Assembly: GCA_951406725.2 (NCBI GenBank)
Contig: OX597821.1
Span: 96,038,001 to 96,102,000, forward strand
DNA from: Octopus vulgaris
Lineage: Eukaryota
DNA: 64,000 nucleotides
Direction of reading: 5' to 3'
Below are positions 20,625 through 64,000 of the stretch, in pieces. Both the position numbers and the translations under genes were made by a program. How positions within the stretch are numbered: the stretch's first letter is position 1; the number at the start of each line of letters is the position of its first letter. The notes beneath the pieces are model-generated. The model was not told where the DNA came from. It worked only from the letters and a program-made list of their open reading frames with translations, and made no database searches.

Positions 20625-21580
20625 ATAGTATCAGTTAGGAACGAGGAAGTATTGAAAGCAGAGAAAAAAGGTGAAACGAAGGAAGAAGTACAAAAAGGAC
20701 ACGAAGAAAAATGACGCAAGAAGGGACTACTCAAGGTATTCCATGTAGCCAAAACAGAAGTTGCTGGAAAAAATAGGTGAGATTGGTTGAAGAAAGTGAC
20801 ACTAAAATAAGAGACCGAGAGCACTGTGCTGGCAGCGCAAGACCAAGCTTTGGACGGTGAACCTTTGGAATAAGCAATGTGTCTCCGCTGTGCCGCATCT
20901 GCAACAGAGTGGATGAAACCATTGCCCATATCACAAACGAATGCCCTAGACTGCTCAAAAACCATTACAACTTATGGCAGTATGATCAGGTAGCGAAAGA
21001 ACTACTTTCTTTCGCTACCTGATCATACTGCCATACTTTGGAAACTGTACGAAAAGTGGGTGCTATAGAGGGGCAAAATGTGGTATGAACACAAACCACA
21101 GAGAGTGACAGAGCCGGAGACTAGAAATGTCCTCTGGAATTTCCCAATCCAAACAGATTAGACGCTAGAGCATAACAGACCGGACCTAGTGTTGGTCAAC
21201 AAGATGCACCATAAGTGCTATATAGTTGATATTGCACGCCCCTTCGACCCACAAATAGTCAGAAGGCAGGTGAAAAGGTAGATTGATACAACCCTCTTAA
21301 GTACGAAATAGCTCGGTTATGGAAAATGTAGACAGTGAAGATAGTGCCAATTATTTTTGGGTCCTTGGGAACAGTATCAGATGGCATCAAAAGGAATATC
21401 AAGGAAAATGGAATAGAGTGCCCAGTAGAATTGTTACAAAAGGCTTGCCTCCAAGACGCGACCAGAATAATCCGGAAAGTATTAGATAGTCGAAATGAAC
21501 GAATAACATGGGACCGTTGGCTGCAGGTAGCAAGCCCGCTACACATGCGAAGCTCCAGGAGTTCCAAAAATAACTGTGAT
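20625..21580 (+). mobile_element. 5'-truncated, decayed RLE-type non-LTR retrotransposon (R4/Dong-like)
   Basis: Broken frames give ETESTVLAAQDQAL, CRICNRVDETIAHITNEC (CCHC knuckle), NRPDLVLV...IVDIARPFD (PD-(D/E)xK endonuclease) and LQKACLQDATRIIRKVL. Contains stops and frameshifts; (TAA)n tail. Confidence 0.85.
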
Positions 21581-21611
21581 AGTAGTAATAATAATAATAA
21601 TAATAATAATG

Positions 21612-21697
<86 letters not shown>

Positions 21698-21698
<1 letters not shown>

Positions 21699-22004
21699 TC
21701 GTAGGAGCACTAGGAATGATCAAGAAGGGAACCGAAAATTATATGAGAATGATCCCTGGCTTACCATCCCAGCAAGAAGTGCAAAAGATCGTCTTAACTG
21801 GTACATCACACGTATTGAGAAGAGCATTGTCGATGTGAGAACTGTTGCTGCTCATGTATTTTAATTTAACTTTAAAAAAAAAAAAAATTAACGAACTACT
21901 GAGTTTGGTTTAATGGCCTACCAATATACACTATGAGTTTCTTTGCCCTAGGAGTCGAGAAGACACTCGGCAAGAAATGGAAGAAAATTTGAAAGAAGAA
22001 AAAA

Positions 22005-51421: not shown

Positions 51422-52489
51422 TCATAAACGTGTTTCAGGCTTGGGCTCAGTTAGGTCTAGTGTTCGAAAAGAACCATTTCTGCTTATGGTTCGGTCTGAG
51501 TCCATGTCGTCTTCCATACCATTGTCTGAAATTGATGTACGGTCGGCATACGGTAGAGTCGCGTATAGCGGATTGTTCATTTTATGAACGGCCACAGTGC
51601 CATTCATGAAGGTTTCCAGAACCACAGACGAATTGGACGAGCGACGATCAAAATTATTGGTGGGATCGTGGTGTTCGAGAATCTCGGATCCACCTTGGAA
51701 TGTGCGACTTACCCGGCGTTCGCTGGAGCGCGATCTGACGTGTGTGTAAAAGAGGGTGAAATTGTTCGAGATGACAGGGATGGTGAGGGCAACTAGGAGC
51801 ACTCCACTGAGTGCACATCCAGCACCGACAATATAGCCAATCGTGGAAGACGGATAAACGTCTCCGTAACCAACCGTTGTCATGGTGATGATTGCCCACC
51901 AAAACCCCATAGGGATTGTGTTGAACGAATCGCTAGCGTTCGTTGCATCTTTGCGTTCTGCGTAATAGATCATTGTAGCAAATACAAGCATAGCAATAAT
52001 CATAAATATAGCCAACATAAGCAGTTCTTGAATGCTTGCTTTCATGGCATAAACTAATATTTTTAGCGCTTGGTAATGTTTAACAAGATGGAAAATTCGA
52101 AACATGCGAATAATACGCAAAATAAACATAATTTCCATCACAAGTCGTTCATTTAGATAACAGAATTCTGGATCAGTTGAATGTAGAATGACTTGTACGT
52201 AAAGTGGCACGAGAGCCAGTAAGTCTATAATATTCATTAAAGAACGAACGAACTTCAATTTCTGCGGAGCAAATATAAATCGGGCTATTAACTCCAGTGT
52301 GAAGAAGATGGTACAGATGACATCAATGACGTTTAGCGCATCATGGGACTGCATCACTTGCAGACTTTCGCTAGTCTCTCCGTTGCATTGCCGTGTGATG
52401 TTGGTGGGGCCTCGGACTTGAGGCAGCGTTTCCAGGCAGAAACCCAAAATGGACAGGACCACGAAAAGAAACGATGTAATTCCATATAT
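51422..52489 (-). CDS. Large, probably terminal coding exon of a Shaw/Kv3-like voltage-gated potassium channel subunit (S1-S6, pore, C-terminus)
   Basis: Open frame IYGITSFLFVVLSILGFCLET...LRIIRMFRIFHLVKH (S4)...FATMIYYAER (Kv3-type S5 end)...GFWWAIITMTTVGYGDVYP (selectivity filter)...ALTIPVISNNF (S6)...ETRL*. Polypyrimidine tract plus AG acceptor (cttttctttttcctag|ATA) at 52490-52505 on the minus strand, phase 0; TGA at 51422-51424. The N-terminal T1 exon was not found, so the gene likely starts beyond 64000. Confidence 0.95.
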   Translation of the reverse strand: MYGITSFLFVVLSILGFCLETLPQVRGPTNITRQCNGETSESLQVMQSHDALNVIDVICTIFFTLELIARFIFAPQKLKFVRSLMNIIDLLALVPLYVQVILHSTDPEFCYLNERLVMEIMFILRIIRMFRIFHLVKHYQALKILVYAMKASIQELLMLAIFMIIAMLVFATMIYYAERKDATNASDSFNTIPMGFWWAIITMTTVGYGDVYPSSTIGYIVGAGCALSGVLLVALTIPVISNNFTLFYTHVRSRSSERRVSRTFQGGSEILEHHDPTNNFDRRSSNSSVVLETFMNGTVAVHKMNNPLYATLPYADRTSISDNGMEDDMDSDRTISRNGSFRTLDLTEPKPETRL

Positions 52490-52565
52490 CTAGGAAAAAG
52501 AAAAGATGACAATCAATGGCAATAAAAGCATTAGCATCACTAGCAACAACAACAACAACAACAAC

Positions 52566-52675
52566 ATGACAAAAATATGGCACTCTACTCATAACATTGA
52601 CCTGGACTTCTAACTTATTGTTTCTGGATGAGACCGGAGTCAGTTTGTACAAATACAAGGCAAAAGTCAAACATA
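52566..52675 (+). mobile_element. Isolated 3' UTR of the R4/Dong-like family
   Basis: cttctaacttattgtttctggatgagaccggagtcagtttgtacaaatacaaggcaaaagtcaaacataataat matches about 60850-60935. Confidence 0.6.
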
Positions 52676-52768
52676 ATAATAATAATGATGATGATGATGA
52701 TAATAATAATAATAATAATAATAATAGTAATAATAATAATAATGATAATGATAATAATAATAATAATG

Positions 52769-52858
<90 letters not shown>

Positions 52859-52871
52859 AATAATAATGATG

Positions 52872-52920
<49 letters not shown>

Positions 52921-52922
<2 letters not shown>

Positions 52923-53317
52923 TTTATAGGATTGAAGTTACTCATCAAGAAAGTATAGAAGCAAAAAAAAAAAAAAAAACCAACAAAGAAGAGTGCCATT
53001 GTTATCAAGTGAACGATATTTCCACATCTTGTGTGTCTTCCACAGGTTAAAAAAGATAAACTTGTCAATCTACTTCATTTTGGTAACATTTATACGACTG
53101 AGATAATTCCCCCAGAAACTATAGAAGCAAGAAAAAAAAAAAGACACACGAGATGTCAAAATATATTTCACTTGATGACATCTTTTATTTATTTTTTTGC
53201 TTCTGTACTTTCTGGAGGAGTAACCTTAATCCTAAAAATATTACCAAAATGAAGTAGATTGGCAAGTTTGTTTATTTAACCTGTGGAAGTCGCACGAGAT
53301 GTCGAAATATCGTTCAC

Positions 53318-53319
<2 letters not shown>
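52921..53319. mobile_element. Tandem-plus-inverted array of a ~150-165 bp unit carrying a variant hammerhead (family B)
   Basis: Unit aagtgaacgatatttc.acatct.gtgtgtcttccacaggttaa...cttcattttggtaa...agaaagta.agaagcaaaaaa occurs at 53007-53140 and partially at 52921-52979, and inverted at 53192-53319 and partially at 53141-53180. Flanked by (TAA)n. Confidence 0.6.
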
Positions 53320-53369
<50 letters not shown>

Positions 53370-53378
53370 TGATGATGA

Positions 53379-54608
53379 TTCATTCTTTTATTGGCCACAA
53401 GAGCTCACATAAAATTACATTAAAAGACATACAACAACATAAAAGACAAAAACAGGACGATACAATAGGGTTTACGACGTGTAAACAATATAGATAATTA
53501 AAGATTAAACAATTTAAAACTCCCACCAGAGGAGGCGCTTTAAGGACCTCGTGGAAAAAACACAAAAGCTACGAGGGCAAGAGCCCTTCACCTTTTGTGT
53601 ACAGCTGCGCGCTCAGAATTGATCCTTTCACACTGGCCATTCATCCAACATTCACACACTTTTCAACAAACTTGCTACAAGGTAACAATTTCCTCTCCAC
53701 CATCAACTTCCTTTTCAAGTGAAACTTGAAAAAGTTGAAGCGGGCTTGGTCAAAGAGAAAAGTGTCTGTGTGTAGCCCTTTCAAAGGGGTTCACCATACT
53801 ACCTCTTTCGCTACAGCCACTAGACAAATAAAACTTGCCTGCCCCTCACAGCCAAACGAGGCTCGCGGGGTAATCTTCCCAATGGATTCAGCTGATAGGT
53901 GGATCTGTCCCACACGAACAGCAGGTGTTTGACATGAACCCACAGGTCAACAGTACTCGGGAACTGAACTAGGGCGTGCAGAACGGTTTCATCCTTTTGG
54001 GCGCACCTCGGGCAGGCCCGGCTGATGGTACGTCCGTGCCTGTAAAGTTTATCCCGAACAGGCAGCGCCTCTCGGTAGCACTGTCAGGCAAGGGATTTCT
54101 GGACATTATCCATTGGGCCAAGCCCGAAAGTTCTCCGAAACAGACCGGTTAGTTGATCTTCATCGACGCTCAGAGTTACCCCGAGAAAGTCGTCGCACTT
54201 TCCCTCCACTAGCCCTCTTTTTAACGCTAGAGTAGAGCTACCATCGACTGCATTGCCCGCCTAGCAGATGGCTATGAACGCTTGACGGCACACGAGGTGC
54301 CAAGCGCCCTTTCACGGTCTACGTATAATCCAGGATTGCAGCTCTGTTAAAGAGACGAGCTGTAGAAAAGTGTGTCTTACAAACGGAGACCACACCTGCT
54401 CACCGTCAAGGAAACGCTGGAGATGCCGCAACCTCAGCGCAAGTCTGCGCATCAGTAACCATGGCAAGCCCAGCCCTCCATTCAGTGACTGTTTATAGCA
54501 GATAGAGCGCCTGACCAGTGGAACGCGCCCCTTCCACAGAAAGCAGAAGAGCAAGCGCACCAGCTTGGTCAAGCAGCAAACAAGGCAAGAGACGACAGTC
54601 AAGCGGTA
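53379..54608 (-). mobile_element. Tx1/L1-clade LINE 3' fragment (post-RT region with zinc-finger-like motif)
   Basis: LLFCFLWKGRVPLVRRSICYKQSLNGGLGLPWL and ALPVRDKLYRHG...CPRCAQKDETVLHAL on the minus strand; stops present; flanked by trinucleotide repeats. Confidence 0.75.
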
Positions 54609-54616
54609 TAATAATG

Positions 54617-54683
<67 letters not shown>

Positions 54684-54685
<2 letters not shown>

Positions 54686-55077
54686 TAGTTGTCAAAGATC
54701 ATGAAGAAAAAATGCTTTCTAATTGATGTATCAATACCGGCTGATGACAACGTGTCTCTAAAAGAAATGGAGAAACTCTCAAAATACAAAGACCTGGAAA
54801 TAGAGGTAACCAGAATGTGGAATCTAAAAACAGAAACAATTCCTATCATAGTAGGTGCATTAGGCATGATAAAAAAATATTCAGACAAATACATAACAAA
54901 AACACCAGGACTTACAAACACATATAACATACAGAAAATTGCACTACTAGGCACTGCACACATCCTACGCAGAACACTTTCCATACAATAACCATCAGAG
55001 CATCACAACAAATCACAGCACATACCCAAGGCACACGCTCGGTAGTGAAGTGAAAGCACGCTATAAAAATAAAACTA

Positions 55078-55080
<3 letters not shown>
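54684..55080 (+). mobile_element. R4/Dong-like LINE 3' fragment (RLE C-terminus) inside (TAA)n
   Basis: KKCFLIDVSIPADDNVSLKEMEKLSKYKDLEIEVTRMWNLKTETIPIIVGALG...QKIALLGTAHILRRTLSIQ*; (TAA)n on both sides. Confidence 0.85.
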
Positions 55081-55175
<95 letters not shown>

Positions 55176-55181
55176 CAACAA

Positions 55182-55365
55182 TCCTTTCTGCTATAGGCAC
55201 AAGGCATGAAATTTTTAGGGAGGGGACTAGTCGATTACATCGATCCCAGTGTTTTACTTAATTTATCGACCCCGAAAAGATGAAAGGCAAATCGACTTCG
55301 GTGGAATTTGAAGTCAGAACGTAAAATTGGGTGAAATTCCGCCAAGCATTTTATCTGGCGTGCGA
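55182..55365 (-). mobile_element. SINE family 1
   Basis: Family-1 motifs. Confidence 0.8.
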
Positions 55366-56099
55366 CGGTAATAACAACAACAACGACGACGATGATGATG
55401 ATGTATACTTTTATTGTGAAAAGTGCCTTGATGAAACACTACAGTGTAATACAGAAAAATATGAAGCAATAGTAATAAAGAACGAATAAGCACTTGTAAC
55501 TTACTACGAGCTCATTAGATAGTTATTTAAATCTCTTCCAGATGAGGGGAAGACAAAGTAGAACCGAGTAGATTTTGAAATCAAAACGTAATACATTGTT
55601 TGCCTGACGCGTTCTATCACTTTCCTACCACACGCACATACTCACGCACTCACAGGTGCTCACAAATTCAATAAATAAAGTAGCTTAAGTGAGAAACTAG
55701 TTTATAAGACGCACACCTCACCTCTTCCATCAGAGGAAAATAATCTTACTTACCCACTCCTTATACTTATCCGTCTACACGAATATAGCTTTCGAAAGCA
55801 CTACTTCCCACCACACACAAATATAAGCTCTTTAATATACACAATGTTTATGATAGTTATTCTTGTCAAAACATCGCTTTCACCATTAAACACAACAATG
55901 ACAGACAGTTTCACAACTTCGCCAGAACAGCTACCTTGAAATTATCGAGATCGATCTCAATATGGGGATCTTGCTTCTCCAAAGGTGTTTCAGGTTTCAA
56001 GAAGATTCAAAGTTTGTTTCAAAAGTAGTCTGGTGATAAGATGTATGTGTGATCTTACGCTGACAGTGTAAGGTGTTTGCTGTTATGTACATTTAAAAG

Positions 56100-56812
56100 T
56101 GCATTTGATAGTGTGTTTACAAATTAAAATGTTCTTGGAACTACATAGACAGTATTTTTCGTAGGATATGAAAAGTTCCCATGAGGACTATATTTTTAAT
56201 TTCTATTTTTGGATTTCTTAGAATCAGCGCATTTGTCTATCATTCCTAGAGCACCTATGACAACAAATATTTTTCTAGTCTTGAGTTTCGACATTTTGCC
56301 AAGTTCTATTTCAGGATCTTTATACTTGCTCAGTTTTTGATAGGTTTTGACAGATACATTTTTCACTGTTGGCATAATCATATCGATGATGAAACAGAGT
56401 TTTTGTCTGAAATCATCCAATATAATGTTTGACCCATTTACATTTACATTTTAGTTAGTTTGAGCAGAAAAATTCTATAGATGTGAAATATGATCATTTT
56501 CAAGCATCGGGGGTGGTTTGTGTTCCTCCCCGTTTTTATCCTGGGATAGGCCCAGATACTTGTAAATTACCCACTAAATATACTGTGCTGCTCTATTATG
56601 CCTGTGGAAAGTCTGAGGACGCAAGAAGACTGCACATGGACACAAAATGATCGATGGTTGTTTACACACACGACACGTTGGGCTATGGCCGTCCTGTAAG
56701 ATGTTGGTCTGGTAGCATCTTGTAAATAGGCACTGGCCCTGGGCTGGTTCCATAAACAATTCTGTTTCTGATTTTAAGGCAGATGCTAACTATTGATGGA
56801 TAAGAGCTCTGT
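56100..56812 (-). mobile_element. Decayed R4/Dong-like LINE fragment, same family as 59613-60932
   Basis: Minus frames: PTCRVCKQP, RHNRAAQYI, CFIIDMIMP...KLSKYKDPEIELGKM...VVIGALG. Confidence 0.75.
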
Positions 56813-56813
56813 C

Positions 56814-56865
<52 letters not shown>

Positions 56866-56995
56866 TATATATATACAATCAAGGCAATTAAGATTCAAGT
56901 CAATTCCAATGAATTTACTTGAATATGGTACTTAACTTAGATGGACCAGAAAAACTATATGGTGTTAACCATACAGTAATGTGGGGTGATTATAA

Positions 56996-57201
56996 ACGAG
57001 AAAGAAGCAACAAGAATGGATTAGTTTTTAGTACAATTGTTTCATACAAAGACAGGCTTTATTACAAGTTGCAAAATTGCAGCAGATAAAAGTGTACGGG
57101 ACACTTTTATCTGCTGCAATTTTTGCAACTTGTAATAAAGCCTGTCTTTGTATGAAACAATTGTACTAAAAACTAATCCATTCTTGTTGCTTCTTTCTCG
57201 T
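56996..57201. repeat. ~100-bp-arm hairpin (5-nt loop) abutting (TA)n; probable PLE-type inverted end
   Basis: 56996-57095 is the reverse complement of 57101-57201 apart from a 1-nt indel. The right arm has AATAAA and runs into (TA)n. Confidence 0.8.
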
Positions 57202-57263
<62 letters not shown>

Positions 57264-57271
57264 TAGATATA

Positions 57272-57594
57272 GATACAGCATAGTTTGTTTTCTTTTTCAA
57301 TTAAGACTATGTCTGGCTTCCTATTCTCTATCTCATGGTCGCACTGAATCATAAAATCCCATAGGATCATTGTATTTTTATTTTCGACGATGGCTTCAGG
57401 TTTGTGGTCATATCAATATTTGCTCTTTCATGTTCATACTTGTTGCAAAGTGTCCAATGGACAAGCCTAGCTATATTGTCTTGGAGTCTCTTATATTCCT
57501 TCAGGGCTAGTGGCGTACATTGGCTGGTAATATGCCTTACGGTTTCACCGTTTTGCCCACAGATTATCACATTTTTAAAAATCTGTGGACAAAA
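57272..57594 (-). mobile_element. R4/Dong-like LINE fragment (zinc knuckle to PD motif)
   Basis: ICGQNGETVRHITSQCTPLALKEYKRLQDNIARLVHW and ILWDFMIQCDHEIENRKPDIVLIEK; small hairpin at the truncation point (57551-57594). Confidence 0.75.
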
Positions 57595-57652
<58 letters not shown>

Positions 57653-57654
<2 letters not shown>

Positions 57655-58210
57655 GAGTGAGAGAGCAGTGCATGCGATCAAGTGACACTGGGGTAAAATA
57701 TACGAAGCCCAATATACCCATCATGACTACCCGTCTGATAAGGGTACACCAGGCACATGCATCACAACCATATGTGCGCGACATGGTGATCTCATATCAA
57801 GATAAACAGCACATGACCTTGCAGGTGGGGCCCAGTTAGAATTTTCTTCAGGTTGAGTAGCCCATCCCGCTCAAAAGGTCCCTGGATAAGGGTTGTTTAA
57901 GGATGTTGAAAGAACCACCCATGTTTCCAGAGGTGAATTATTCAAACCCCAAAGAATTCCTCTCAACACATGGCTATGATGCTCGCCCACTACTTCTGCT
58001 CGTGATCAGAGATGCACATATCGTCAGCCACTAAGGGACATGCTCAACTGGTTAAAGTCAAACAACTGACAAGCAAATCTGTGGTATTGAGCAGAATATT
58101 TGCTGTAGCCCATCTTTTATACCAAGACAAAACAATGTACATGATAACACTTCCAATCATTTAAGATCAGAAGCCATGAGAACCACTGCCTGGTACTGCA
58201 TCAGGGCATT
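57653..58210 (-). mobile_element. ~560-bp non-coding element inserted in (TAA)n; probable non-autonomous retroelement
   Basis: Flanked by (TTA)n on both sides. Its left end (tgagtgagagagcag...tgacactggggtaaaatatacgaa) recurs alone at 8594-8656, as expected for 5'-truncated copies. No convincing ORF. Confidence 0.55.
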
Positions 58211-58227
58211 TATTATTATTATCATCA

Positions 58228-58298
<71 letters not shown>

Positions 58299-58847
58299 GC
58301 TAGTGTTATTATTTCAGTGGTGGAGATGACGAAAAACAAAGACACAGAAACGGACATTTGTCATTGAATTATGAACTGTTTAACGATTACTAATTCAACT
58401 ATTGTTATTTTGGACGGACGGACAGACAGTTAAGAATTTAGGTTGACCAAAAAAATACTGACAGTGAAATGGCAAACATACAGTAAAAAAAAATGAACCA
58501 ATGTAATTCATATATGATGAGGCGACATATTCTTCATTGCTTATCACTTGTAAAAACTCATGATGTGCCACAAGAAAAGGAAAAAACCTCAGATCGATAT
58601 GTTGCTTATTACACAGAAATCGATAGCTACCAGACAGCAATACATTGTGGTTATTGGTTGTGGTTGCAGTTGTCGTTGTTGAAACGAAATTAATTTCTTT
58701 CCGTGGGAACCATGTAAAAAGGAGAATGAAGCATAAAGAAACGGTGTTGATCCAGACTTACAACCAGCAGCGTGAAGTGTGTTAATGATAGCCCTTCTCT
58801 CTGGAAACAACGAAACCTACAATATATTTTGCATTCTCTATTTCCGA

Positions 58848-59155
<308 letters not shown>

Positions 59156-59472
59156 GCGCGCAGATACGCATCTTGCTTGATTTAACAAACCTATGACCAA
59201 GAACAAGATTGGATAGTATCCCAGTTGGTTGCGCTTGGAAATCCAGCCGGAAAGTCTAATGACGGTTGCTTTTGATAGGACCCTTTCGAAGAGGTACCTG
59301 AGGACTCTGCTCTCATGACTCATGCACCTAGGAGTGCTTTGTTTTAAGACGATAGGAAGTTCGACTGCTCTTTCTAGTAAGAGGAACACTGCTCAGTGTT
59401 TGCATATTTATAATAAAGAGATTGAGAAAAGACAACATTGATATGGGGTGTTCTCTGGTGATAATAATAACG

Positions 59473-60932
<1,460 letters not shown>

Positions 60933-60959
60933 ATAATAATGATGATGATGATGATGATG

Positions 60960-61024
<65 letters not shown>

Positions 61025-61025
<1 letters not shown>

Positions 61026-61423
61026 GAAATATTAAAATTACTAAGTCTCTCTAAAAGAGATTACGGCAGCGTTACTGGAAATTAATTGTTATCGCCATAT
61101 TAATATGGCAGTCTTATAGATATAAGACTAAAAGCTGTCGCTGATTAGCTCCATGAGACCATCGCCTTAAGATAGCTATTTGACACACAAACTGTGTCCA
61201 TTATAACCTTCGAACAAGGGAGATCAGCCGCTTCACACTGCTAGTCAGACAGCTACAGACGCGTTTCAGGGTATTTGCCCTTTGTCAATGTAGCGTAGTC
61301 GACCCAGCAGGTGTCGCCACTGATCGTCAAATAGCTATCTTAAGGCGATGGCCTCATGGAGCTAATCAGCGACAGCTTTTAGTCTTATATCTATAAGATT
61401 GCCATATTAATATGGCGATAACA

Positions 61424-61429
<6 letters not shown>
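61025..61429 (-). mobile_element. Short fold-back element with ~104-bp inverted arms enclosing a hammerhead; Penelope-like (PLE) terminal fragment or retrozyme-like
   Basis: Arms 61081-61184 and 61326-61429 are near-perfect reverse complements; (TAA)n on both sides. A hammerhead plus an inverted terminal copy is the typical PLE insertion layout (established). No GIY-YIG or RT coding seen. Confidence 0.6.
61238..61310 (-). ncRNA. Type-I hammerhead ribozyme fold (U3:A8 core variant, palindromic stem III)
   Basis: Minus strand 61294->61252 reads GCUACA-UUGACAA-AGGG-CAAAUA-CCCU-GAAA-CGCG-UC-UGUAGC: stem I GCUACA/UGUAGC, stem II AGGG/CCCU, GAAA, ACGCGU palindrome, GUC cleavage triplet. Stem I extends through bulges (CUGCU..GUC.GAC / GUC.GAC..AGCAG). 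Confidence 0.8.
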
Positions 61430-61466
<37 letters not shown>

Positions 61467-61650
61467 GCAATGGCAAGAATGATCTATTGGGAGCGTTGTG
61501 GAAATCACGGCCAACAAAGAGTAAAGTCGTGGTATAAGCAAACTCCAGAAGGAGTCTCCGAAGATGAGAATTGCAAAATCCTGTGGGCTGCAATGACTCA
61601 GTTCGATCACATGACCAGACATCGGAAACCGGACATTCTAGGTTAAGCAG
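61467..61650 (+). mobile_element. R4/Dong-like LINE internal fragment
   Basis: MARMIYWERCG...WYKQTPEGVSEDENCKILW...RHRKPDIL directly after (TAA)n. Confidence 0.65.
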
Positions 61651-63019
61651 CAATTTCTACAAAACCAGCGCATACTAGAGACATACAAATGCTGCCATAC
61701 GCTCTCTATCTCCTAATACTGGATCTTTCACTTAACATGTGTCAGAGATATCTTCAGATATTTCAATATTTGATATGAAGGAAGTCTTTGTGGTCTTGGC
61801 CAGACCGTTGTATCTTGCACCAATTCATGACTAACAAGGCTGAACTATCTTTTACGCTTCCTGTAGAGGAGATGTACTCTACAGGTTAGTCGGTTCCTCT
61901 GCTATCAGTACCCTCTTGAAGACGGGTTGTGTATGTTCTGTCTTTTGATGCAGGACACTTCACGGCTCGGTCGAAGATGCTTACATGCAGTTTCAGATGA
62001 CATAATTTGCAAAAAATGGTCGGAGCGAAAGATAAGGACATGGAGGATTCTGATCTTATCTTGGCGCCGCATCACACTTTATTGTGAGTAGAGTTACAGA
62101 AATACAAGAATGACGATCAAGGACATTGACCAAAAGCTGAGCCTGGTTCAATGTCACCTTTGCATCGCAGTGCAGGCTAATTATCAGTACAAAAGTGACA
62201 AGAAGATATATGTAATAGAGAGTTCGGGATAAACTTATACGATCTAATTGGTAATTTCAAAACCATGCTAGATCTGTGCTCTTTGAGGACGCCGAGCAAA
62301 AGAATAAGTGCAGAGCATAAGATTAAGTGGTTACCACAATAGCAGTATAAGGACTCTTGCCCACGAAGAGCTGGAGAAGCGAATGACAAAGCACAGTGTG
62401 TTTTAAAGTTTTAGAGATGGCAGAATAGGTCAACTCATAACCGATCCTAGAAGCTTACGATAAGCAAGAGGGAATAGAAGAGCAAAACGTGCAAACTACT
62501 AGCAAAGAGAAAGAAAAAAATGACACTAGAAAAGGATGATGAACTACAAAAGAAGGTAACCATAAAGATGGAAGACCCCCACTACCCCTCATGGTAAGTT
62601 CATGGGGTTAACAGTTGGGATTAACAGTTGTACGGCTTCTCGAGTATAGGCTATTGATAAAATACTCACTTGAATGGTTTTCTCTACAAAATGAGATAAC
62701 TGGGTGCAGTTGTTAGGGTGCTGACGATTTAGCACGGCTGACTGGTTCTTCAAACTGCTTTGGCGACTGGAGGCAAACAGGCGCACACATACATACACAT
62801 ATATACATATATATACACACATGATGCAGAGATAAGAGAGAGAGTGAGAGAGAAAGAGAGAGATAGAGCGAGCGAGAGTGAGAGGGAGAGAGAAAGATTG
62901 CACATACATACTAACATATAACGCGATATTCACACGCATAAACAGAGAGTGAAAAAGAGTGAGAGAGAGAGAAAGAGAGATAGAGTAAGTGAGAGAGTGA
63001 GATATTAGAGAGAGAACGA

Positions 63020-63050
<31 letters not shown>

Positions 63051-63082
63051 AGCACGAGAGGAATATGAAAACAAGAGAAATA

Positions 63083-63279
63083 TCGGCTTCTACTTTTAGC
63101 ACGAGGCCAGCAATTTCGGCGTTGGGTGTAAGTCGATTACATTGACCTAAGTAATCAACTGACACTTATTTGATCGAACCCAAATGGATAAAAAGTCGGC
63201 CTCGGTGGAAACTGAACTCAGAACGGATGAAATGCCGCTAAGTGTTTTGTCTGGTGTGATTCTGCTAACTCGCCGCCTT
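63083..63279 (-). mobile_element. SINE family 1
   Basis: Family-1 motifs; followed by a family-2 tail at 63306-63370. Confidence 0.75.
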
Positions 63280-63367
63280 AAAAGGAGAGAAATATTAAAG
63301 TAACTGGCTAAAACAATGTGACGCGCATTGTGACCAGCGATGTGTTGCAACGGTCACGGTGATCACG

Positions 63368-63435
<68 letters not shown>

Positions 63436-64000
63436 AGGAGACAGAGAAAGAGAGAGAAATAAAGAGACGGAGAGAACGAGAGAAACACGAAAACGAGAGA
63501 CATGAAAACGTCTGATGTCAAACAAGCTAGCTTCAAATCAGCGATGCCAAAAATAGGCAACGCCAAAACGGCTGTGCCCAAACGTCTCATGCTCGTTTTA
63601 CTATATGACAGATGCTCTGTACGAGCACTTTGGAATTTTCGTGACTCAAAAGACCTCTGTATGTATCAGAACTCAATATTAAAAGAGGTAGAGGGAAGAT
63701 ATGTGGGTTGTTCTGATCCAACATAAGTGACCTAAAGTTTATAGTTATATCTTAATTATTTTGCATTTTCAGCAATATCCTATTTTCATGTAATTATTCT
63801 TCGTTACAAATTATTAAAATGTCCAACAGACACACACACGCGCGCGCGGGCGCAGATATACCTCTGTGTGTGCGTGCGTATGTGTGTTAGTGTGTGTGTT
63901 AGTGTGTGTGTGTGTGTGTGTTATGTTGCTTTTTTACTCCATTTTTATGTAATTTGCTTGTCTACCAAACATTTTTTGTAACTACCTATATACGTTTGTT

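Follow-up and report, generated by a model that had tools for sequence, protein, structure and literature searches.

The window, that is, the whole stretch of 64,000 nucleotides of Octopus vulgaris DNA analysed here (contig OX597821.1, positions 96,038,001 to 96,102,000), carries on its minus strand the last coding exon of a Shaw/Kv3 potassium channel gene, part of the intron upstream of it and, in sense within this intron, a hammerhead ribozyme motif that sits in a short inserted element flanked by microsatellites (Table 1). The exon is 99.7% identical to an Octopus Shaw/Kv3 protein. Exon 2 maps just outside the window (C8:96106188-96105923) and exon 1 lies ~434 kb upstream of exon 2 (C8:96540390-96540074), with GT/AG splice sites and the exons joined in phase. 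This places the hammerhead ~6.7 kb past the donor and 8.8 kb ahead of the acceptor of intron 2. A first-pass annotation, made from the letters alone, had presumed that the motif is intronic and in the sense orientation, and had named the mapping of the upstream exon as one test; with exons 2 and 3 both placed, and exon 2 beyond the window, the site is indeed intronic.

The public Octopus Shaw model (P0001) appears to open, over residues 1-100, with a mariner-type transposase fragment that has many repeat matches and apparently replaces the true exon 1. In the window, two frame fragments on the plus strand (54689-54988 and 21332-21835), presumably similar to a non-LTR retrotransposon protein at its C-terminal end, adjoin (AAT)n tracts.

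Table 1. Features of the host gene and of the intronic insertion, in window coordinates.
Feature	Position	Strand	Basis
Shaw/Kv3 host gene, last coding exon (exon 3; S1-S6 and C terminus)	51422..52489	-	Protein match
Host-gene intron 2, running on to window-equivalent position 67922 (15,433 nt in total)	52490..64000	-	Exon mapping
(GAT)n/(AAT)n microsatellite, left flank (target)	60933..61025		Sequence
5'-truncated retrozyme unit, monomer positions 1-309 of 364 bp, ending at the long (tail) 3' end	61020..61328	-	Copy comparison
Tail of ~60 nt, running from one fixed 3' end to the other (monomer ~248 and ~309)	61020..61080	-	Copy comparison
Type-I hammerhead (extended stem I, U3:A8 core, stem II, palindromic stem III, GUC site)	61238..61310	-	Sequence reading, folding, subfamily alignment
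Predicted cleavage site, after C17 (61258)	61257..61258	-	Coordinates of GUC; prediction
ACGCGU palindrome (A15.1-U16.1), predicted 6-bp intermolecular stem III	61259..61264	-	Duplex -7.5 kcal/mol; other palindromes in sister subfamilies
Core U3-A9 (U3 = 61288, C7 = 61284, A8 = 61283)	61282..61288	-	Sequence; U3/A8 invariant among copies listed
Inverted arm, 5'-truncated, that covers monomer 145-248 and stops at the short 3' end	61326..61429	+	Copy comparison, self-complementarity
(AAT)n microsatellite, right flank (target)	61423..61467		Sequence

A type-I hammerhead fold with a U3:A8 core

Read on the minus strand, the motif comprises a 6-bp stem I bearing a bulged extension, the core UUGACAA, a stem II of 4 bp capped by a 6-nt loop, GAAA, the ACGCGU palindrome and the GUC triplet. 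The core positions are those of a type-I hammerhead (G5, A6, A9, G12, A13, A14, the pair A15.1-U16.1 and C as H17), with U:A at 3:8, and the three helices, helix I being open, are backed by compensatory changes. Folding of 61225-61325 gave -41.8 kcal/mol (z = -4.24), which none of 200 shuffles equalled, and when the whole insertion is folded, the pairs of stems I and II reach predicted probabilities of at least 0.89. The complete type-I fold of the first-pass annotation, with its UUGACAA core, GUC site, ACGCGU palindrome and bulged stem I, was thus borne out. Its label "minimal" was not: by the definition in PMC4209133, canonical metazoan type-I hammerheads have a 6-bp helix I and a 4-bp helix II, and on its sequence the window motif is of this canonical form.

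The 3:8 pair of hammerheads is confirmed in PMC3884650. Stem III of the solo window copy has 1-2 bp, and helix III would probably be stable only in a dimer. None of the Rfam hammerhead models matched the motif at gathering or E-value thresholds, likely owing to the core swap and the short stem III.

The motif belongs to a recently copied tandem repeat

The window copy stands alone, without a tandem partner, and is recent, since it is ~98% identical to its siblings. The inverted arm (61326-61429) would pair with 61081-61184 over 104 nt, at 98% complementarity, enclosing the motif. A reading of this inverted repeat as a MITE was discarded, as arm length is locus-specific and both arms are truncated copies of one monomer. 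No PLE (Penelope-like element) protein match was found within the window, and the unit has no ORF. In the Kv3 pre-mRNA the two arms are predicted to form a 104-bp, 98% perfect hairpin (window 61081-61184 with 61326-61429), possibly a substrate for ADAR, given that RNA editing in octopus is heavy.

A genome search with the window element returned 46 matches of 95-100% identity from the 40 candidates scored out of 2,149, and revealed a 364-bp monomer that also occurs as tandem dimers. Exact copies of the window subfamily's motif numbered 104 and 149 by two patterns (controls 0), and the subfamily diverges by 2.0% (731/36,919 bases) in a sample that leans toward exact matches. Strands of the copies are roughly balanced genome-wide. 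The family was present in contigs from all four public sequencing runs, which pointed to sister subfamilies; the locus-specific junction was bridged by none of the listed contigs from these runs. No run listed with the family is on record as RNA.

To describe the ends of copies we kept 84 loci with 130 fragments, after removal of five duplicate loci. Fragment 3' ends fell near monomer position 248 in 52 cases and near 309 in 61, with 17 elsewhere, such that 113 of the 130 are fixed. Microsatellite sequence follows 90 of these 113 fixed ends, as (TA)n in 86 and (ATT)n in 4, the remaining 23 being other sequence. Fragments longer than one monomer are common (38/130), and inverted arms were found at 39 of the 84 loci, 29 of which combine one short with one tail end. 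A tail, an inverted truncated copy and a bias towards microsatellites are hallmarks of PLEs (PMC8557442), and for a PLE studied in vitro the tail equals the distance between two internal start sites of reverse transcription, with a cleavage preference for ATT (PMC11167929). The copies are dispersed, share fixed 3' ends and differ at their 5' ends, which also bears the mark of retrotransposition. The 5' ends showed no pile-up at the cleavage site (2/33 within monomer 70-74, in a biased sample) and copies run through it, a pattern that fits templates in the form of circles or uncut multimers and gives no footprint of cleavage.

Each repeat unit, whether in the 364-bp dimers or in a sister array of 362-bp units, contains a type-I hammerhead, within the 150-450 bp of retrozyme monomers. 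The monomer is non-coding, has a GC content of 41% and is highly self-paired, with 63% of bases paired in the circular fold (z -5.3 against 60 shuffles), as is typical of non-LTR retrozymes. The link to Penelope-like elements and retrozymes drawn in the first-pass annotation is hence upheld by the 364-bp tandem units, the two 3' ends, the inverted arms and the microsatellite targets. High copy number and youth set the family apart from domesticated intronic hammerheads, which are of low copy number and conserved at orthologous sites.

At one locus (L081, C5:98276800-98278800) the two units of a tandem dimer differ in the allele at a common A/G site, pointing to a multimeric template of mixed units or to a subsequent change. 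Inverted arms share alleles at this site, among the matches listed.

Compensatory changes in sister subfamilies

Sister subfamilies are 78-90% identical to the monomer and gave 1,613, 200 and 1,554 exact matches by patterns that overlap (controls 0-1). Among them is an array in which a 362-bp unit is repeated 5.5 times at 99% identity, and pure arrays of five or more monomers exist. A pattern scan yielded 44 variant classes, from which 14 subfamily representatives were aligned; those left out were mostly single copies with broken pairs. In this alignment, whose rows were chosen by a hammerhead-shaped pattern, 98.3% of cells are paired, compared to 24-53% in slid controls. Two-sided changes occur in four pairs and 19 cells. 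None of 500 shuffles reached this cell count, and 191 of 500 reached the observed number of pairs.

The changes fall in stem I and in the palindrome, which takes three 6-nt forms (ACGCGU, ACAUGU and ACUAGU) and the form ACGU. Since these compensatory changes separate whole subfamilies, the fold of the family is likely to be under selection. The catalytic core positions and GUC are invariant in all 14 representatives, while position 7 is C, U or A. The first-pass annotation had argued for selection from the compensatory 3:8 change itself. Its conclusion stands on the stems and the palindrome and finds no footing in the 3:8 pair, which never varies: U3 and A8 are kept together, as it had expected of other copies, in 14 of 14 representatives and in 100 of 100 matches listed for each of two patterns, with no covariation. 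Within-family 3:8 covariation was accordingly rejected, and U3:A8 is one inherited trait. We also rejected a sister family with canonical C3:G8 and the ACGCGU palindrome, as the 27 matches, compared to 10 in the control, were heterogeneous. A few of the 12 inspected (L034, L038 and L043) are C3:G8 hammerhead-like motifs with ACGCGU that are unrelated to the family.

A young Penelope-like element as candidate helper

A search for GIY-YIG domains uncovered a young PLE with many intact frames of 781 amino acids, comprising a reverse transcriptase (RT) and, at the C terminus, a GIY-YIG domain. Eight copies are 96.6-100% identical. A CX2-5CXXC linker at residue 647 makes it a candidate member of the Neptune-type clade, a placement by linker motif and not by tree. 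Its insertions lie in (TA)n targets and have two 3' ends, a short end and one with a ~35-nt tail. In 19 of 30 loci the sequence UUGAUAA...GAAACAUGU lies close to the 3' end of the PLE, and 1,359 motifs of this type occur genome-wide; among 100 matches listed, 99 have U3, 99 have A8 and none has C3 and G8. A hammerhead fold of the PLE's own motif was not predicted in either of the two copies tried, stem I being weak, and comparison of the PLE 3' end with the monomer gave no significant extended similarity (best matches 12-24 nt, E at least 0.17). From these sequence features we regard this PLE as a candidate helper of the retrozymes.

A second, upstream frame of 479 amino acids overlaps the start of the RT/EN frame in three copies (L174:81-1517, L177:268-1704 and L180:118-1554) and had no convincing Pfam match. 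Such a two-ORF layout is unusual among EN+ PLEs. At C13:22645500-22653500 a sister retrozyme (L162) and a PLE copy (L182) flank a single TA-rich tract, each on a different strand, an arrangement consistent with a shared target preference.

Origin of the window element

We consider it very probable that the window element is a young, 5'-truncated solo copy of the 364-bp repeat, a non-LTR retrozyme that a Penelope-like helper copied into (AAT)n sequence within the Kv3 intron and that has no predicted role in the channel gene. Following the retrozyme model of PMC7229834, tandem arrays would be transcribed, neighbouring hammerheads would pair via the palindrome and cut out monomers, and the released monomers may be circularised. 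The PLE protein, with its RT and GIY-YIG domains, would nick AT-rich microsatellites and start reverse transcription at either internal site, monomer ~248 or ~309, on multimeric or circular RNA. Two start sites on such a template would yield both the longer-than-unit copies and the inverted arms with unequal ends. Because the window copy is solo, only weak cleavage is expected in the Kv3 pre-mRNA; it would cleave poorly without a second RNA pairing in trans. Among Xenopus retrozyme dimers, only one of nine is reported to self-cleave in vitro (bioRxiv 10.64898/2026.07.22.740005).

An alternative that we judge unlikely sees the U3:A8 hammerhead as a relic, with little activity or a structural role, whose fold is kept for recognition by the PLE protein rather than for cleavage. 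The absence of a 5'-end pile-up at the site would fit, as would in vitro work on an anole PLE, whose insertion had no need of hammerhead cleavage and whose ribozyme cut only with protein present (PMC11167929). Against it, position 7 varies among the 14 representatives and their palindrome has two-sided changes, while the catalytic core positions and GUC stay constant in every one. Published activities are divided: U3:A8 swaps were active in vitro according to PMC3088659, whereas in the mutational scan of PMC9901934 only the G3:C8 swap rescued. Whether U3:A8 preserves activity is hence a matter of context.

A bolder extension, very improbable in our estimate, holds that the U3:A8 core marks a matched pair, in which retrozymes are parasites of an active PLE with two ORFs, that the stem-III palindrome acts as a partner code and that solo intronic copies are cut in trans by abundant family RNA. 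By sequence, ACAUGU, which is common to the PLE and one retrozyme subfamily, could form mixed hammerhead dimers with helper RNA, and the ACGCGU and ACUAGU subfamilies would pair only among themselves. If this were true, retroelement expression would trim neuronal pre-mRNAs such as that of Kv3.

It is very unlikely that the unit is the pseudo-LTR of an unsampled autonomous PLE and the window copy a truncated PLE end. The insertion anatomy is of PLE type, the genome also has the U3:A8 core at PLE 3' ends and a few partial PLE protein matches lie near copies (7/129 loci). However, these matches are short, 32-68% identical, derived from different parts of the protein and not common between loci (flanks 1-1.5 kb), and no RT and GIY-YIG frame continuous with the hammerhead repeat was found in the 129 loci and their flanks of this size. 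Upstream of the unit lies host DNA or another monomer, up to pure arrays of five or more.

We give equally little credence to a regulatory reading, in which the window copy would be active in Kv3 transcripts as they are made, either by itself as a monomer or paired in trans with RNA of the family, and would reduce or adjust expression of the channel. In its favour, the copy lies in sense in intron 2, 8.8 kb separate its site from the acceptor, and an intact ribozyme domain is predicted to fold in the loop closed by the 104-bp hairpin. Against it, the copy is one of more than 1,500 dispersed family motifs on roughly balanced strands, a recent (~98% identity) solo copy with a stem III of 1-2 bp, and in Xenopus introns in any case contain 42-44% of the retrozyme copies (bioRxiv 10.64898/2026.07.22.740005). 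Landing of the retrozyme copy in the channel intron was likely due to chance, and a special meaning of this intron is not supported, this being one young solo copy among thousands.

Relation to known systems

The octopus motif does not represent a new class of ribozyme, and no evidence links it to regulation of the channel. Rarity of the U3:A8 core is not supported, as natural cases, including PLE-associated hammerheads, are in print: natural U3:A8 hammerheads were reported in 2011 (PMC3088659), and in 2014 ~1,300 Schistosoma matches were obtained with a U3-A8 descriptor built from a PLE of that genus (PMC4209133). Non-LTR retrozymes are known from coral, mussel and axolotl (Cervera and de la Pena 2020, PMC7229834), and their origin from PLEs has already been argued. 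Among the papers listed in a search of the octopus literature, none described the retrozyme family. Our results extend non-LTR retrozymes to octopus and, by joining two-ended insertions with a young intact PLE that has the same core swap, lend good support at the sequence level to the proposal, still open, that retrozymes are mobilised by PLEs. The useful addition is this evidence for pairing rather than the channel intron. In addition, the octopus retrozyme and PLE would suit an assay of mobilisation in trans, and they offer a natural series in which to measure U3:A8 activity.

Compared to the metazoan non-LTR retrozymes of PMC7229834 and of Xenopus (bioRxiv 10.64898/2026.07.22.740005), the octopus family is alike in its canonical type-I hammerhead, its tandem monomer in the range of 150-450 bp (364 bp, next to 350-390 bp in mussel), its GC content below 50% (41%), its non-coding nature, its occurrence as monomers, dimers and multimers and the coexisting PLEs. 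This likeness is one of genomic sequence. It differs in having the U3:A8 core throughout and in its clear PLE signatures (two 3' ends, inverted arms and microsatellite targets), which the accessible parts of those reports do not describe for metazoan retrozymes. The hammerheads of the Schistosoma mansoni Cercyon PLE (PMC4209133) and the natural U3/A8 variants (PMC3088659) share the core swap and occur mostly as solo copies, yet they are minimal, with a long helix II and little helix III, in contrast to the 6-bp helix I, 4-bp helix II and short non-autonomous monomer of octopus.

Neptune-type PLEs, with their C-terminal GIY-YIG domain and CX2-5CXXC linker (PMC8557442), resemble the family in the tail, the inverted 5'-truncated copy and the microsatellite bias, and the co-resident young octopus PLE shares the linker motif and has the U3:A8 core. 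Unlike them, the window element encodes no protein, and it is not alignable to the 3' end of the co-resident PLE. Finally, the conserved intronic hammerheads of amniotes, which PMC7229834 mentions, are few in copy. The octopus motif is like them in lying in sense within an intron, and differs from them as a recent copy of a large mobile family.
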